A DNA stretch of 64,000 nucleotides from an uncultured Poribacteria bacterium. GTDB lineage: Bacteria; Poribacteria; WGA-4E; WGA-3G. Below are positions 47,385-57,391 of the stretch, one piece after another (the stretch's first letter is position 1; each line of letters begins with the position of its first letter). The translations under genes were made by a program, and so were the position numbers. Where the stretch lies: NCBI GenBank assembly GCA_958296135.2, contig CATQHZ020000001.1, positions 3,072,001 to 3,136,000 of the forward strand, given 5' to 3'. The notes beneath the pieces are model-generated. The model was given only the letters and a program-made list of their open reading frames with translations. It had not been told where the DNA came from and did no database searches.

Positions 47385-47526
47385 GTTTTATTTCTCCTTT
47401 CCTGTCGGCGTGACGGTTTGCAACCGCGCACGGGTTATGTTGCGCGCATCCAAAGCGCGCCTACGCGTAAGTCCTGTTGGTATTATTGATGCGGGTGGAT
47501 AGAGACATCCGCCCTTACCGCATGAA

Positions 47527-48381
47527 TTATTCCTCGGCAATCGGGAACAGCTCCGGCTTCTCAGGATTCTCAGTTCCCATCGGGATTGCTTCTGGCGGGA
47601 ACTGCGTGCAGACTTCGCCGTTTTTCATTGCCCATCGGGAGTTGTGCCAGTAGCGTTTGCTCGTGTTGACAATCTCCGGATTTGTCCAGACTCCGGCGAC
47701 AGCGATGCGGCTCTGCGCACTTCGATTGGGGGGACTGTAGTGCCACATATTGCTGTGCCAAAAGACAACCTCCCCGGGGCCCAATTCAATGTGGTGCACG
47801 CCGTGTTTGTTAAGCATCTCCTGCACCTTTTCACGTGGAAGTTCGCCATGGATGCTGTCCGCATAAAGTACATGCTCAACGATTTCCGTTTTGTGGCTGC
47901 CCGGAATAAACTGCATGCATCCGTTCTCCCGCGTTGCCGGTTCAAGGGGCATCCAGAAATTGAAGGGCTCCGTCTCTCCGTCGCGCCAGAGCCCGTTATC
48001 TTGGTGCCACGGTGTCGCACTGCCGGTGCGCGCCGGTTTGAGGAAACAACTATTAAATTTGACGATAATATCGCCGCCGAGGAAATAGCGGGCGATGTTG
48101 AGCAGTGCCGCGCCGGCATGCACATTATGCCAGATCAGCGGCGATTGCACGCAGAAGTTACTCAGCTTCCGATAGCGCGCGATTCTGCCTTGCGGCGAAT
48201 CTTTCATCGGATCCCTCGGGTCGATGTCCACAAATGTGCCGGGCTCCGGGAGCATAATGACATTGCGAATAACCCCGCGGAGTTCTGCCGTGAGTTCGCG
48301 TGAAATCACGTTCCGAAGGATAAAATAGCCTTCAGTTTCGTAGTGTGATTTCTGTTCGGGAGTAGGTTGCCAATGCATCAT
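47527..48381 (-). CDS. Phytanoyl-CoA dioxygenase (PhyH) family protein
   Basis: PWHQD, IPGSHK, WHYSPPN. Confidence 0.88.
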   Translation of the reverse strand: MMHWQPTPEQKSHYETEGYFILRNVISRELTAELRGVIRNVIMLPEPGTFVDIDPRDPMKDSPQGRIARYRKLSNFCVQSPLIWHNVHAGAALLNIARYFLGGDIIVKFNSCFLKPARTGSATPWHQDNGLWRDGETEPFNFWMPLEPATRENGCMQFIPGSHKTEIVEHVLYADSIHGELPREKVQEMLNKHGVHHIELGPGEVVFWHSNMWHYSPPNRSAQSRIAVAGVWTNPEIVNTSKRYWHNSRWAMKNGEVCTQFPPEAIPMGTENPEKPELFPIAEE

Positions 48382-50431: not shown

Positions 50432-51667
50432 ATGACATTGAAAACGCATTTAATGGCGTTGGACCCGAATAATAAGCAGGCGACGCTGCTTGCACGACAT
50501 TGTGGTTATGCCCGCGTTGCACGTAACCATGCGCTCTCAGATTTCAAGGCAGGACTCGCCGAAAACGAGTGGCGCAGTGGTTACACATTGAACGTTCGCT
50601 TCAACGCCGTGAAACACGAGACATATCCGTGGTGTAAGGAACTCGACCAACGCGCAGCGAAAAACGCTGTGATGCACATTGATGACGCAGTCAAACGGTG
50701 GCGGCGCGGTCAAAATCGATTCCCACGTTATCACACCCGAGCGAGTAGGACTTCCTACCAACCGCATGAACGTGTGAGAATTGACAGGAATCGCGTCAAA
50801 CTGCCGAAGATAGGCTGGGTTCGGATGCGTGAGAAGTTGCGATGGCGTGGCGAGATTCGGCGGTGTGTCGTCTCAAAACGTGCGGGCAGGTGGTTTCTAT
50901 CGGTTCTCGTGAAGGTGGTTTCCGACAGTGCGCCACGTGTGCGTTCTGAGGCAGCACCTATGCGTGTGGTTGGTGTTGATGTAGGTATCAAGACACTAGC
51001 CGTAACCTCCGATGGTGTTGAGTTTGAAAACCCGAAGGCATTGTATCGATACCTGCGGAAGTTGCGGCGTGCGCAGCGTCAGCTCTCTCGTTCGGTTTAC
51101 CGAAGCAGAAACTGGTATCGGAAGCAGTTCCGCGTGCAGAAGATTCACTATCGTATCTGCTGTCTGCGTGAGGATACACATCATAAGGCAAGCACGGCGA
51201 TTGTAAAGTCGGCTGACGTTCTCGGTATCGAGAGTCTTCGTGTGGCGGGCTTGTTGAAAAACCGCCGTCTTGCGAAGGCGTTGAGCGATGCGTCGTTAAG
51301 CGGTTTCCTGACGATGCTTCGGTATAAGGCGGAGGCGCGTGGCGTTGAGATTATCGAAGCACCGTCGAACTTCCCGTCATCGAAGACGTGCAGTGCTTGC
51401 GGGAATAAAAAGACGAAGTTGTCCCTCTCGGAGCGGACATATCACTGCGAGGCATGTGGCGTGGGTATCGACCGCGACTTGAATGCCGCGCATAACTTAA
51501 GAAACCTCGCCGCTAGCTTGACGGAGAGGCAAAACGGCTGCGGAGCGACTATAAGCCCTCATAGTAGGCACACCTCGTGTGTCTCGGAGGCACGCCGCAT
51601 TGAAACAGCAACTACGACAGATAAGAGGACAGGTCAGCTTAGGATAGATTTGTCCAGAGTATCATAA
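50432..51667 (+). CDS. tnpB: RNA-guided endonuclease TnpB
   Basis: RuvC GVDVG / IESL / DRDLNAA; CSAC..CEAC Zn finger. Confidence 0.93.
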   Translation: MTLKTHLMALDPNNKQATLLARHCGYARVARNHALSDFKAGLAENEWRSGYTLNVRFNAVKHETYPWCKELDQRAAKNAVMHIDDAVKRWRRGQNRFPRYHTRASRTSYQPHERVRIDRNRVKLPKIGWVRMREKLRWRGEIRRCVVSKRAGRWFLSVLVKVVSDSAPRVRSEAAPMRVVGVDVGIKTLAVTSDGVEFENPKALYRYLRKLRRAQRQLSRSVYRSRNWYRKQFRVQKIHYRICCLREDTHHKASTAIVKSADVLGIESLRVAGLLKNRRLAKALSDASLSGFLTMLRYKAEARGVEIIEAPSNFPSSKTCSACGNKKTKLSLSERTYHCEACGVGIDRDLNAAHNLRNLAASLTERQNGCGATISPHSRHTSCVSEARRIETATTTDKRTGQLRIDLSRVS

Positions 51668-51688: not shown

Positions 51689-52009
51689 ATGAGCAAGGCG
51701 GTTCTCGGCGGAAGCGATGGAAGAGCGCGGTGCAAGTGCGGGCGGCTCCGTTATCCGCGCTACCCAGTTTGTCCCAAGTGCTATTATGAAGGCGCGCAGA
51801 AACCGACTTCTCTCAACCCGAGAAAATTGTCGCGCGAGGAACTGCTGAAGATGCAGGTTCCTAAACGGATGCTGCTGCCCGACCGGCAGGAACGCATCCG
51901 GTTTTTAGAGCAGCGATATGGCCCGCAATTACGCGGGCAAGACATCCGTTTTATGAAGAATCCGCAGGTGTACGCGCTCTCCGAACAAGCCGGATATCGG
52001 CGGAGATAA
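51689..52009 (+). CDS. Small Cys-rich hypothetical protein
   Basis: CKC...CPKC; ATG would overlap the restored stop of the upstream nuclease gene. Confidence 0.6.
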   Translation: MSKAVLGGSDGRARCKCGRLRYPRYPVCPKCYYEGAQKPTSLNPRKLSREELLKMQVPKRMLLPDRQERIRFLEQRYGPQLRGQDIRFMKNPQVYALSEQAGYRRR

Positions 52010-52105
52010 ATTAGCGGCTCGCTTTCAAAGCGCGCCTGCCGAGTGTCAAAAAACGTTGTTTCTGGCACATACAAAATTTTGCCCAAAAAAAACTTGCAAG
52101 AAGAC

Positions 52106-52134
52106 TTGACAAATAATTGCATATTTGTTAAAAT
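52106..52134 (+). promoter_or_regulatory. Sigma70 promoter with operator-like inverted repeat
   Basis: TTGACA-17-TAAAAT; ACAAATA-ATTGCA-TATTTGT across the spacer. Confidence 0.75.
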
Positions 52135-52165
52135 AACCAACAAATTATTCAAGGAGGAATTCCTC

Positions 52166-53164
52166 ATGTATATTGCAAGATTAGCGTTGATTTGCATCAT
52201 CGCTTTTGCATTGTCAATGGGTGCTCAGGTGATGGCAACCGAATCGACGGATGCCACACCGGACGCGACCGTTGAAAAAGTGACGCTTAGCGTGACAGGC
52301 ATGACGTGAGGCGGCTGTGTTTCTGCAGTGCAGGGTGCACTCAAGAAAGTCGCCGGTGTCACGGAAGTCGTCAGTGTTTCGTCAGCCGACAATCAGGCTG
52401 TCGTGAAGGTAGAGAAGGGGAAAGTTGACACGGCGGCACTTGTCGCAGCCGTCGAAGCAGACCCGCGCTTCAAAGCCGAGGTTGTTATGCCTAAGCCCGC
52501 GGTTGAAGAAGTGACGCTGAAAGTGACAGGGATGACGTGAGGTGCGTGCACTGCTAAGGTGCAGGATGCACTTGGAAAAGTCGCCGGTGTCACGGAAGTC
52601 ATCAGCGTTTCTACAGACAGCAATACGGCTGTGGTGAAGGTTGAAAAAGACAAAGTCGCCGCTGCCGATTTGACAACCGCTATCAAAGCCGCAGGGTTTA
52701 CCGCGGAAGTGATGCCTATCGCCGAAGTGACGCTGAAAGTGACAGGGATGACGTGAGGTGCGTGCACTACTAAGGTGCAGGATGCACTTGGAAAAGTCGC
52801 CGGTGTCATGGAAGTCATCAGTGTCTCCACAGACAGTAACACGGCTGTGGTGAAGGTTGAAAAAGGCAAGGTCGCGGATGCTGATTTGACAACCGCTGTC
52901 AAAGCCGCAGGATTCACCGCGGAAGTTGTCAAGCCGGAAGTTGAAGAGGTGACGCTGAAAGTAACAGGGATGATGTGTGATGCATGTCCCGCCAAGGTAG
53001 AAGCCGCCCTCGGTAAGGTGGACGGTGTCGCCGAGGTTGTCAGCGTTTCGATGGCGGACAGCACGGCTGTGGTGAAGATCGAGAAGGGGAAAGTGACGAC
53101 AGCTGCCCTCATTGAGGCAGTTGCTGGCGCGCACCCGGGTTTCAAAGCGGAAGTCGCCAAATAG
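52166..53164 (+). CDS. Secreted four-HMA-domain multi-selenoprotein (332 aa; UGA at 52307, 52538, 52754)
   Basis: AAGGAGG RBS; signal peptide; GMT-U-GGC, GMT-U-GAC, GMT-U-GAC, GMMCDAC in one frame; SECIS-like hairpins after each UGA. Confidence 0.88.
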
Positions 53165-53173
53165 CGCGGCACG

Positions 53174-53200
53174 GAAGGATGGGCTTTGCCCGTCTTTTCT
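53174..53200 (+). terminator. Probable intrinsic terminator
   Basis: GAAGGATGGGC-TTT-GCCCGTCTTTTC hairpin with T-rich tail. Confidence 0.6.
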
Positions 53201-53282
53201 TAGTTTGCTGGTAGGCGCGCTTTCAAAGCGCGCCTACCGAAATTCTGGAAAGGAACGCGTTCAGATTCAAGCGGGTGCCTAC

Positions 53283-53585
53283 ATGACGTTCAAAGATATT
53301 CTTCCGCTCATGTTCCCGGTGAGAGCGGTTCATCCGCAGGTGCAAGCCTGGTCTGGCAACCTTGAGCGCGCTGTTTTTCATCTCAGGGACGAGGTTCCGC
53401 CGGAAGTAGAGTGGGTGTGGTTCTTCCATCACGAGGACAGCTGCATCTATAAATTTCAAAGCGTTCGCGGCATCCATCATCAATGGAAAATGGCCGAGGT
53501 CTGCGATGCTGGCACACTGCCGAAGTTCGTAAATCAGAAGGCTTTTGCGGAGATACCGGCGGTGTTTCCGCAAAATAAGCGGTAG
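53283..53585 (+). CDS. Hypothetical protein
   Basis: 100 aa from MTFKDIL; stop provided by a REP GTAG. Confidence 0.5.
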   Translation: MTFKDILPLMFPVRAVHPQVQAWSGNLERAVFHLRDEVPPEVEWVWFFHHEDSCIYKFQSVRGIHHQWKMAEVCDAGTLPKFVNQKAFAEIPAVFPQNKR

Positions 53586-53647: not shown

Positions 53648-54505
53648 TCACTGCTGCGCGTAGAGCGGGTTTTCAAGCAGCGACTGTACCTCGTAAATTG
53701 AACCCTTCTTCTCCGAATAGGGTTCCGGCATCCGCACGGGTGCCGCAACCATGCGCGGCTGGTTCGTCGGTTCACCACGGATGATAAAGTCGTTGAAGCT
53801 ATCCCAATCCGGAATCCCTTTTAGCGGCCACGCATCCACAGCGCAATACTGGAACAGGAGTAAACGCCGCGGCTTATCGGAGGTATTCGGTGCCGAACCG
53901 TGCAACGCTCGGACATGGTGGATGGAAATCCCGCCGGCTTTCAGTTCAACCGGTACCGCTTCCTCCGGCGTGAAATCGGCCTCGGTCACCGCACCGATAA
54001 ACGCGCCGTTTTGGTGATGATTCAAGGTGGGCCCCTTGTGGGAACCGGGGAGTATCATCAGTGCCCCGTTCTCCACCGTCATGTCATCAATGACAACCCC
54101 GACAGCGAGCAGATCATCGTTCGTGTGCGGATAAAACGCCCAATCCTGATGCCATTCCACCGGACTGCCAAACGCCGGATACTTCATATTCAGTTTATGT
54201 CCGTTATACCGGAGCCCGGGCCCGATGAGCTGCTCAACGATGTCCAGAATCTTCGGGTGTCGCAAGGTTCCGTCGTAGACTGAGTGGTAGAGCCCCGGGT
54301 TTTTGATGCGGCGCACACGCGGGTTCGCGGGGGTGTGCCCCGGCTCCAGATCGAAGATGTCGGTATGTTCTGTAACTTCCCTGGATTTCTCGACAAATTC
54401 ATCGGTGACCCGGCGGAGTGCTACGACTTCATCGGCTGTCAGCACTGCTTCAACGCCGAGGTAGCCGTTTTCATTGTAAAAACCGAGTTGTTCTTGAGTG
54501 AGCAT
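53648..54505 (-). CDS. PhyH family dioxygenase
   Basis: EWHQD, LPGSHK, HGSAPN. Confidence 0.88.
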   Translation of the reverse strand: MLTQEQLGFYNENGYLGVEAVLTADEVVALRRVTDEFVEKSREVTEHTDIFDLEPGHTPANPRVRRIKNPGLYHSVYDGTLRHPKILDIVEQLIGPGLRYNGHKLNMKYPAFGSPVEWHQDWAFYPHTNDDLLAVGVVIDDMTVENGALMILPGSHKGPTLNHHQNGAFIGAVTEADFTPEEAVPVELKAGGISIHHVRALHGSAPNTSDKPRRLLLFQYCAVDAWPLKGIPDWDSFNDFIIRGEPTNQPRMVAAPVRMPEPYSEKKGSIYEVQSLLENPLYAQQ

Positions 54506-56073: not shown

Positions 56074-56154
56074 CCGTTGGGGGCGAGACTGCTAGGCGCG
56101 GCTTCCCGCCGTGTCTCTCGCCCCACCTATCTAGCAGCAGGTGACAACCAACGG
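56074..56154 (+). ncRNA. Structured tnpB 5' leader RNA, copy 2
   Basis: Same fold as 50330-50416 with compensatory changes. Confidence 0.7.
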
Positions 56155-56167
56155 GAACGGTGACGCT

Positions 56168-57391
56168 ATGGCACTACGAGCCCAGAAGATAGCACTCCAT
56201 CCAACTGAGGAACAGGTCGAGGCATTTAACCTGCATGTGGCATTCGCACGCGCTGCATATAATGCCGCGCATTCTGATTGGAACGCCGACCGCCGTAACT
56301 CCCTCTACGATTTGAAGAAAATCTTCAACTCACGGAAGCGGCAGGTGTTCCCCGAATTCGCCGCGTGTTCTCAAAACGCAGGCAAGAATGCTATCCACGC
56401 TTTCGGTGATGCTATCGCCAGATACAAATCGGGACAGAATGGTGCGCCCAAACGGAAGACGCATAAATCCACACCTGCTTTTCAGATGGACAATGGCGTG
56501 GATACCGTCAAAATAACGGAGGACAGCAAACATGTCGTTCTCCCGACAATTGGACAGGTTAGGTTGCATGAACCCCCTCGATGGACAGGTGAAGTTCGCC
56601 GTGCTTTCGTCAAGCGAATCGCACATCGTTGGTATCTCAGCATCCTTGTCGACGTTAATGAACCGGAACCGCCCGACACGTCAGCACTGCCCCCTGCAGG
56701 TTGTGATGTCGGCATCTCTGCCCTCGCCACGATGGACGATGGCACTGTCTATGAAAATCCGCGTGCCTTGCGCGTCAATGAACGCAAACTACGCCGCGCC
56801 AATAAGGCACTCTCCCGCAAGACGTTCCTGAGCAAAAACTGGTGGCAGGCGAAGGAATGCCTCGCCCGCCTGCATGCCCGTATCGCCAATGTCCGAACCG
56901 ATGCGCATCATCAGGCAACACATCGCATCCTGCAAGGTATTTCGGCACTTGGCATCGAAAGCCTCACCGTGAAAGGTTTGATGAAAAATCGCAAGCTGAG
57001 CAAGGCACTCGCGGACGCAAGCCTCGGTGGTTTTCTCGTCAAACTTAAATACAAAGCGGTGCGCCGGGGTATCCGTATTGTGTCAGCAGATGAGTTCTGG
57101 CCGTCAACACAGCGATGCAGTTCTTGTGGATACATTAAGCGTGGTGAATTCAAGCTGTCCCTGAAGGACAGAGAATACCATTGCGGTGTGTGTGGTTTCA
57201 TAGAAGATAGAGACGTTAACGCAGCTATAAACCTTCGACAGCTCGCCTCCAGCACGGAGGAGAGTCTAAACGCCTGTGGAGAAGCCGTAACACCAACTGC
57301 GGTTGGCTGGCATCACAACCCGCGTGTGCGCGGAAGAAGCAGGAAACCGCTAACCTCTCAGAGACTCATAGACTTCGCACATGCTAGATAA
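56168..57391 (+). CDS. tnpB: RNA-guided endonuclease TnpB
   Basis: GCDVG / IESL / DRDVNAA; Zn finger; ATG 56168 aligns with the copy 1 start. Confidence 0.93.
   Translation: MALRAQKIALHPTEEQVEAFNLHVAFARAAYNAAHSDWNADRRNSLYDLKKIFNSRKRQVFPEFAACSQNAGKNAIHAFGDAIARYKSGQNGAPKRKTHKSTPAFQMDNGVDTVKITEDSKHVVLPTIGQVRLHEPPRWTGEVRRAFVKRIAHRWYLSILVDVNEPEPPDTSALPPAGCDVGISALATMDDGTVYENPRALRVNERKLRRANKALSRKTFLSKNWWQAKECLARLHARIANVRTDAHHQATHRILQGISALGIESLTVKGLMKNRKLSKALADASLGGFLVKLKYKAVRRGIRIVSADEFWPSTQRCSSCGYIKRGEFKLSLKDREYHCGVCGFIEDRDVNAAINLRQLASSTEESLNACGEAVTPTAVGWHHNPRVRGRSRKPLTSQRLIDFAHAR

Follow-up and report, generated by a model that had tools for sequence, protein, structure and literature searches.

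A putative exported protein with four HMA domains and three selenocysteines encoded in a Poribacteria genome

A single gene in the genome of an uncultured Poribacteria bacterium very probably encodes a true selenoprotein with three selenocysteine (Sec) residues. The gene lies at 52166..53164 (+) of the window, the 64,000-nucleotide (nt) stretch of DNA analyzed here (assembly GCA_958296135.2, contig CATQHZ020000001.1, positions 3,072,001 to 3,136,000), and its three in-frame UGA codons correspond to U48, U125 and U197 of a protein of 332 amino acids (aa) that ends at a TAG codon at 53162-53164. We suggest that the gene is intact and of an expressed type, and that the ribosome would read the three UGAs as Sec, each with the help of its own in-frame hairpin (stem GUGCA/UGCAC, G-rich triloop) acting as a selenocysteine insertion sequence (SECIS). 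An N-terminal signal peptide would export the product, which would string together four HMA domains of ferredoxin-like fold, the first three bearing a U-x-x-C site and the last a C-x-x-C site. In the periplasm these two-coordinate selenolate/thiolate sites may bind soft metal ions, making the protein a multivalent buffer or chaperone. The gene itself probably derives from a phylum-wide pair of single-domain Sec-HMA lipoprotein genes, by fusion and by tandem duplication of a cassette of UGA, hairpin and domain. To this explanation as a whole (Sec read-through, an exported soft-metal-binding array and an origin from the gene pair) we assign a probability of about 0.8. It draws on the reading frame, the domains, the Sec machinery, the column-exact alternation of TGA and Cys codons, a conserved hairpin and synteny; actual Sec insertion, export, metal binding and the choice of metal are predicted from these.

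From the ATG at 52166 a single frame runs to the terminal TAG, and the only in-frame stops before it are the TGA codons at 52307, 52538 and 52754. Within these 999 nt there is no frameshift and TGA is the sole stop type, so that under the standard table 11 the gene falls into four open reading frame (ORF) pieces. An earlier note on this DNA had joined the four pieces into one frame, and translation bears this out. Read through, the motifs are in order GMT-U-GGC, GMT-U-GAC, GMT-U-GAC and GMM-C-DAC, with each TGA at the first Cys of the HMA motif and a canonical Cys in the fourth domain, exactly as that note had described. The domains span 52271..52489 (domain 1, GMTUGGC, UGA 52307-52309), 52502..52711 (domain 2, GMTUGAC, UGA 52538-52540), 52718..52933 (domain 3, GMTUGAC, UGA 52754-52756) and 52940..53161 (domain 4, Cys type, GMMCDACPAKVEAAL, without a hairpin), all on the + strand. 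The protein belongs to the Pfam HMA family (PF00403), which it matches in four stretches with 118.2 bits against a gathering score of 24.8 (E 2.1e-34), and the read-through frame with its 3 TGA codons scores 630.5 bits in a six-frame HMA search. Domains 2 and 3 are 88.4% identical in nucleotides, against 66-70% for the other domain pairs, and lie within a tandem repeat of period 216; they are a recent tandem duplication.

Evidence for Sec comes from the position of the TGA codons in related genes. HMA matches were found by six-frame search in all 41 related genomes, and a reading of the result rows indicates that in each genome one or more of these matches contain an in-frame TGA. The 13 best database homologs all start at MQ[GDA]AL, right behind the TGA of the first domain, and their later domains are of the Cys type. 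These homologs are cut at the TGA by gene callers, and such genes are missing or truncated in databases. We compared 94 distinct 60-nt fragments, taken from the U/C codon on in the window and in 57 loci; 85 have TGA and nine have TGY, all in one column, which is that of the first Cys of the motif. Another 15 distinct sequences, from more distant lineages, likewise have TGA at this column. The earlier note had proposed such a comparison of homologs, and its outcome is that TGA or TGY falls at exactly the motif codon and that the stops are not randomly placed. On a tree of 51 domains the Sec/Cys state needs three changes. This tree (70 columns; 19 of 46 inner branches unresolved) was kept small and built from 20 of about 60 available sources, namely the window, L022, L023, L025, L026, L028, L030, L032, L034, L038, L039, L044, L047, L050, L053, L055, L065, L070, L074 and L081. 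Related loci are here records titled Candidatus Poribacteria, a group of sponge symbionts. Within the same order, a more distant family has sites with one extra residue, U-x-x-x-C: GMTUGVGC at L123 229-519 (-) and GMIUGISC at L125 205-480 (-). These two were translated from the four of 18 regions (L123-L126) that our first motif pattern had missed.

A bacterial Sec-UGA requires its own SECIS just downstream. Behind each Sec-type TGA, 20 to 34 nt after it and within the coding sequence, lies a hairpin of the form GUGCA-GNN-UGCAC. In the window the three SECIS-like hairpins are found at 52327..52341 (A-GUGCA-GGG-UGCAC-U, after UGA1), 52558..52572 (G-GUGCA-GGA-UGCAC-U, after UGA2) and 52774..52788 (G-GUGCA-GGA-UGCAC-U, after UGA3), all on the + strand. 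Codons +7, +8 and +10 after the TGA are GTG, CAG and GCA in 85 of 85 Sec fragments (GTG CAG nnn GCA). The Val codon of the hairpin is thus GTG in 85/85, against 7/168 for the other Val codons of the same fragments, and the Ala codon is GCA in 85/85, against 21/106 elsewhere in them. Three Cys-type domains retain the VQDAL peptide, and each of them has one synonymous change in the stem (GTA, GTT or GAC). The Cys-type domain 4 of the window encodes VEAAL and has no such stem. The 15 sequences from more distant families were added and pairs counted on 91 distinct sequences, in which 92.5% of cells pair, compared with 17-46% for slid partners. At pair 12-20, 87 sequences have G-C, three G-U and one A-U; at pair 14-18, 86 have A-U and two G-C, and three are unpaired. 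There are accordingly compensatory changes in distant lineages, from G-C to A-U in one sequence (with the three G-U intermediates) and from A-U to G-C in two, and the covariation score was exceeded by none of 500 shuffles. The selD gene of the same genome has a comparable hairpin behind its own UGA, with a 6-bp stem and a GGG loop. The hairpin is here interpreted as a SelB-binding SECIS element.

The genome, which is 94.7% complete, encodes the machinery for Sec insertion, the presence of which the earlier note had proposed as a check; selA, selB, selC and selD were all found above curated cut-offs. The tRNA-Sec scores 78.1 bits against a cut-off of 47 and is also called by ARAGORN (tRNA-SeC, anticodon tca), and its gene directly adjoins selB (317.5 bits, cut-off 242). 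SelA is present with 596 bits and SelD with 350.6 bits, the latter with one in-frame TGA of its own. TGA terminates 268 of the 1275 ORFs of at least 400 aa in this genome, which excludes a genome-wide reassignment of the code. With the UGA/Cys column, the downstream stem-loop and the four sel genes, the gene very probably belongs among the bacterial selenoproteins. The Sec reading of the earlier note is in this way supported by the machinery, by the TGA/TGY column and by the conserved hairpin.

Several observations weigh against the explanation given above. The related sequences are kin and not independent samples. Taken singly, the sequences do not stand out by folding energy: the 60 nt after UGAs 1, 2 and 3 fold with z = -1.20, -1.47 and -0.81, and 23, 17 and 42 of 200 shuffles, respectively, fold at least equally well. 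Because the stem is nearly invariant, the covariation comes from few sequences, with 10 double-change cells of 637, and seven of these 10 fall in the outermost pair, a weak one that 43 of the 91 sequences leave unpaired. No Rfam model matched 51900-53400 at E values up to 1, and to our knowledge Rfam holds no general bacterial SECIS model. Three successive UGA recodings would be expected to cost yield in bacterial Sec insertion. The case is based on sequence, and there was no RNA run among the public runs that match the locus. As regards function, no single HMA domain of the protein reaches the cut-off of any named NCBIfam family, and the conserved synteny contains no transporter, regulator or mer/cop gene. 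Public DNA reads agree with the three TGAs, a check that the earlier note had also proposed: Logan contigs of four public runs cover all of them, with TGA and no other letter seen (not TGC or TGT). The four runs are of one sample from one study, possibly the source sample of the genome itself, and therefore do not count as independent support. Their contigs break at the domain 2/3 repeat, and none spans the whole gene.

Metal binding by the HMA domains is likely, given the HMA fold and the GMTxxxC loop, which argue for binding of soft metals. By sequence the nearest solved structures are the metal-binding domains of ATP7B and CopA, CopZ and MerP (7xuk, E 1.3e-32; 7si3, 2ew9, 2rml and 1cpz; MerP 1afi, E 4.9e-8). 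The window protein shares with the N-terminal HMA arrays of ATP7B/CopA and with CopZ these best structure matches and the beads-on-a-string repetition of HMA domains. Those proteins are cytosolic, all-Cys and parts or partners of a pump, whereas this one has a signal peptide and Sec. It falls outside the CopZ-type families (NF047957, NF033795 and NF033794; single cytosolic domain, cut-offs 85-95 bits), since its best domain reaches 57 bits against a cut-off of 85 (NF047957) and since a signal peptide precedes its four domains. The family NF041115 (UxxU_metal_bind, 'metal-binding (seleno)protein') is likewise a small domain of HMA type whose metal motif contains Sec. The window protein differs from it in being predicted to be exported, in its tandem domains and in its UxxC rather than UxxU motif, and its domains score 45.8-51.9 bits each against a cut-off of 95; the whole-protein score of 162 bits for this family is a sum over four domains, as are the other high whole-protein totals. 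The Sec forms of P-type ATPases (UxxC; TIGR01525) and NF045683 also have UxxC in an HMA domain, there fused to a membrane transporter, whereas the window protein would be a soluble exported array that lacks a transporter part. Considering that no domain is over a cut-off, that MerT and MerA were not identified and that no metal gene is nearby, we favor a role as a periplasmic Cu(I) buffer or chaperone, in which the metal is a guess. We would give Cu(I) an even chance, Hg(II), Ag(I) or Cd(II) together a chance of about one in four, and something else the rest. Of the soft-metal chelator or chaperone proposed in the earlier note, metal binding stands as likely from fold and loop.

The alternative that survives best accepts a genuine selenoprotein and makes it mercury-specific, a MerP analog that would scavenge periplasmic Hg(II) and feed it to an uptake and reduction system. 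The affinity of selenolate for Hg(II) is very high by established chemistry. Like MerP (TIGR02052), the window protein has a signal peptide followed by HMA with a GMT-[U/C]-x-x-C site, and MerP is among the structures matched by sequence. A Sec form has been listed before, in the selenoprotein table of the GOS selenoproteome, which has a row 'Mercuric transport protein MerP' with 2 sequences (PMC2398784); it is known here by that table entry, and its sequences may already include members of the present family. The window protein differs from MerP in its four domains and three Sec. Per domain it scores 40.6-45.9 bits with the MerP model, below the cut-off of 92.55 and also below the CopZ-type scores. 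No match to MerT was found in the 94.7%-complete genome, and the best matches to the MerA model, 353 and 344 bits, are under its cut-off of 454. The conserved neighborhood contains no mer genes and offers no mer operon context, and whereas mer operons are typically mobile, the gene pair resides on the chromosome throughout the phylum. We consider this alternative unlikely and prefer a soft-metal buffer or chaperone, with Cu(I) as the favored guess.

A second possibility is that the U-x-x-C sites serve redox chemistry or selenium handling, so that the protein would act as a selenylsulfide oxidoreductase of the periplasm, or would store or carry selenium as selenoprotein P does. Eukaryotic selenoprotein P is secreted and contains several Sec, with SECIS elements in the 3' untranslated region that serve many UGAs. 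The likeness of the window protein to it lies in predicted secretion and several Sec, and the difference in an unrelated fold and an in-frame hairpin for each UGA; the present data contain no evidence of selenium transport of this kind. Three or four Sec modules per chain would raise selenium content, and section 7 of PMC13188914 regards most prokaryotic selenoproteins with UxxC or CxxU as presumed redox proteins. The fold here is HMA, not thioredoxin, and in every solved relative matched the CxxC binds metal; G-M-T-x-x-x-C is kept, along with the Met and Thr that characterize metal-binding HMA loops. As a selenium store the protein would be poor, at 3-4 Se per about 35-45 kDa and with a last domain that is always of the Cys type. 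A redox or storage function appears improbable, more so than the mercury-specific one.

The remaining alternatives deny Sec altogether. Automatic callers treat the locus as a broken or truncated gene, with translation ending at the first UGA and the downstream domains dead or expressed as Cys-less fragments from internal starts, and both the four ORF pieces and the homologs that start after the first TGA fit such a reading. Three stops on one motif column without a frameshift or other stop, TGA in that column in 85 distinct fragments from dozens of genomes, frozen synonymous sites downstream and a complete Sec machinery make it very improbable, and pieces behind the TGA would lack the first metal ligand as well as a signal peptide. 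Equally improbable is suppression or a changed code by which UGA is read as Cys, Trp or Gly, since, although a frame left open with TGA as a residue does not specify which residue is inserted, TGA is a normal stop elsewhere in this genome, a dedicated tRNA-Sec and SelB are present, TGA occurs only where paralogous domains have Cys, and a conserved hairpin would be superfluous for suppression.

Synteny suggests where the three-Sec gene came from. In 31 of 38 related-genome loci there are two adjacent single-HMA genes, whose products of ~100-160 aa carry a signal of the lipoprotein type and GMTUxxC. The window gene stands in the same synteny as this pair, with PhyH, Laminin_G_3 and GIY-YIG upstream and GT4 downstream, and the phylum-wide pair of single-HMA Sec lipoprotein genes is here replaced by one four-domain gene. 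The window protein retains the MYIARL signal of the first gene of the pair, minus the lipobox Cys, and in the tree its domain 1 falls with the same gene and with domain 1 of a same-genus protein. Domains 2 and 3 come together with the second (Sec) domain of this same-genus protein and with that protein's Cys domains 3-4 (98/97), and domain 4 clusters with that protein's last Cys domain (100/99).

Tandem Sec-HMA arrays occur in nine of 176 phylum genomes, a lower bound because the pattern used was strict (GMT-U-G-x-C twice at fixed spacing); a reversed control pattern gave 0 matches. Eight of the nine are exported proteins by their sequences, one with two Sec, five with three (including that of the window) and two with four, the latter consisting of 4 Sec and one Cys domain in 406 aa. 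In the ninth, two Sec-HMA domains form the C-terminal part of a cytochrome c-WD40 protein. In every array seen the last domain is of the Cys type. The arrays of other genera differ in signal peptide, occur alongside the canonical pair and fall in a clade of their own (97/91), and for these reasons the tandem architecture probably arose more than once. A metagenome scan found only nine loci, none with a tandem array. We think it possible, though on balance doubtful, that Poribacteria repeatedly amplified the UGA + SECIS + HMA cassette to make periplasmic multivalent selenolate traps for Hg, Cu, Ag and Cd.

The same genome encodes a second HMA selenoprotein candidate outside the window, at L079 2550-4109 (-) (G000:C1 about 3466049-3467608). 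This protein of 519 aa combines a signal peptide with a cytochrome c domain of planctomycete type (PSCyt1, CQGCH), a WD40 propeller and, at the C-terminus, an HMA domain with GMTUGAC; the same hairpin lies behind the TGA. Similar frames, 527-590 aa long and with a single TGA, are present in the majority of the 41 related genomes, and in one genome (L092) the C-terminus carries two Sec-HMA domains. This cytochrome c-WD40-HMA(Sec) protein may be a partner to the exported HMA proteins. In addition, a 346-aa frame with one in-frame TGA at L091 (G000:C1:1840889-1841569, -) scores 68.6 bits against the central part of the MerA model (pyridine nucleotide-disulfide oxidoreductase) and may be a further selenoprotein.

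Signals for expression and export flank or begin the coding sequence. A sigma-70-type promoter is predicted at 52106..52134 (+; TTGACA-17 nt-TAAAAT with TG ahead of the -10, 11 of 12 matches), and a comparable promoter with an extended -10 precedes orthologous genes in relatives. The ribosome-binding site AAGGAGG at 52151..52157 (+), 8 nt before the ATG, recurs as AAGGAGG at the matching position in 27 of 27 upstream regions compared. A putative signal peptide at 52166..52237 (+; MYIARLALICIIAFALSMGAQVMA), read from the sequence, has no lipobox Cys; orthologs have lipoprotein signals of the form MYIARLSLICL..VGC, with the lipobox (..VGC) at the matching place. Downstream, an intrinsic-terminator-like hairpin followed by a T run was found at 53173..53199 (+) by a terminator scan, which alone is weak evidence as it gave one site against 2.5 expected in shuffles. 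The ribosome-binding site, promoter and terminator pointed out in the earlier note were thus recovered, the last by this weak scan, and its reading of a 332-aa protein, with UxxC at three sites and CxxC at one, is upheld, with export predicted from the signal peptide. The promoter spacer contains a dyad, ACAAATA-N6-TATTTGT (52109-52128), which is common to the same-genus locus L041 only; other relatives differ and mainly keep the extended -10, and since chance is possible we make no claim of an operator. Two antisense ORFs, 52393-53172 (-) of 259 aa and 52382-53134 (-) of 250 aa, were rejected as real genes because neither has a Pfam match while the + frame is conserved in relatives.

The conserved neighbors of the locus are PhyH, Laminin_G_3, GIY-YIG, GT4, PRPP synthetase and sulfatase, and none of them relates to metals. 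PhyH (phytanoyl-CoA dioxygenase family) genes bracket the locus at 47527-48381 (-) and 53648-54505 (-), and PhyH paralogs are the most conserved neighbors of the HMA pair, in 34 of 35 related loci. Two TnpB/IS605 OrfB genes, each with OrfB_IS605 and a Cas12f1-like TNB domain, are at 50432-51667 (+) and 56141-57391 (+). The first of these and a 106-aa ORF at 51689-52009 sit between the GIY-YIG and HMA genes, which are adjacent in relatives. A REP-like palindrome (GCGCGCTTTCAAAGCGCGCC..) is found on both flanks of the gene, at 52017-52038 and 53215-53236, and also at 47442; it has 137 copies on contig C1 (up to 2 mismatches), and the depth of public-run contigs jumps about 25-fold over it.

Selenocysteine in HMA-type sites has been cataloged before. 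NCBIfam includes NF041115 (UxxU) and NF045683 (a MerT/CopZ fusion), and Table 1 of a 2026 survey (PMC13188914), which comprises 119 prokaryotic selenoprotein families, lists the P-type ATPase UxxC form (TIGR01525 row), MerT and NF041115, the last as a 'putative mercuric reductase' with UxxU and 2 Sec. A stand-alone exported HMA family with UxxC is not in that table. Most families there have one Sec and the maximum is three, in one family. The novelty that the note saw in the gene was overrated, as Sec-HMA and MerP types were already cataloged and its three Sec are exceeded by two relatives with four. A Sec-hydrogenase in Poribacteria is already in print, and PMC5649159 reports SelA and SelB as enriched in sponge symbionts. 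Our literature search found no description of tandem HMA selenoproteins or of Poribacteria HMA selenoproteins, and supplementary lists of published selenoproteomes may already include members of the family.

Since each bacterial Sec-UGA needs its own SECIS, proteins with several Sec are rare. Duplication of a domain along with its UGA and hairpin would be a simple route to such proteins, and one that was probably taken at least twice in a single phylum, leading to as many as four Sec. The window protein and its relatives also offer natural Sec and Cys versions of one metal site in one polypeptide, a system in which the role of selenium in Cu(I)/Hg(II) coordination could be studied. If Poribacteria did amplify the cassette as proposed, it would give up to four Sec per chain, above the maximum of three in Table 1 of PMC13188914. 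The last domain, always of the Cys type, may then be a hand-off point, perhaps to the phylum-wide cytochrome c-WD40-HMA(Sec) protein, and the traps would contribute to metal handling in the sponge holobiont. From the perspective of sponge-symbiont biology, these genes add a conserved and exported selenoprotein pair that is probably highly expressed.

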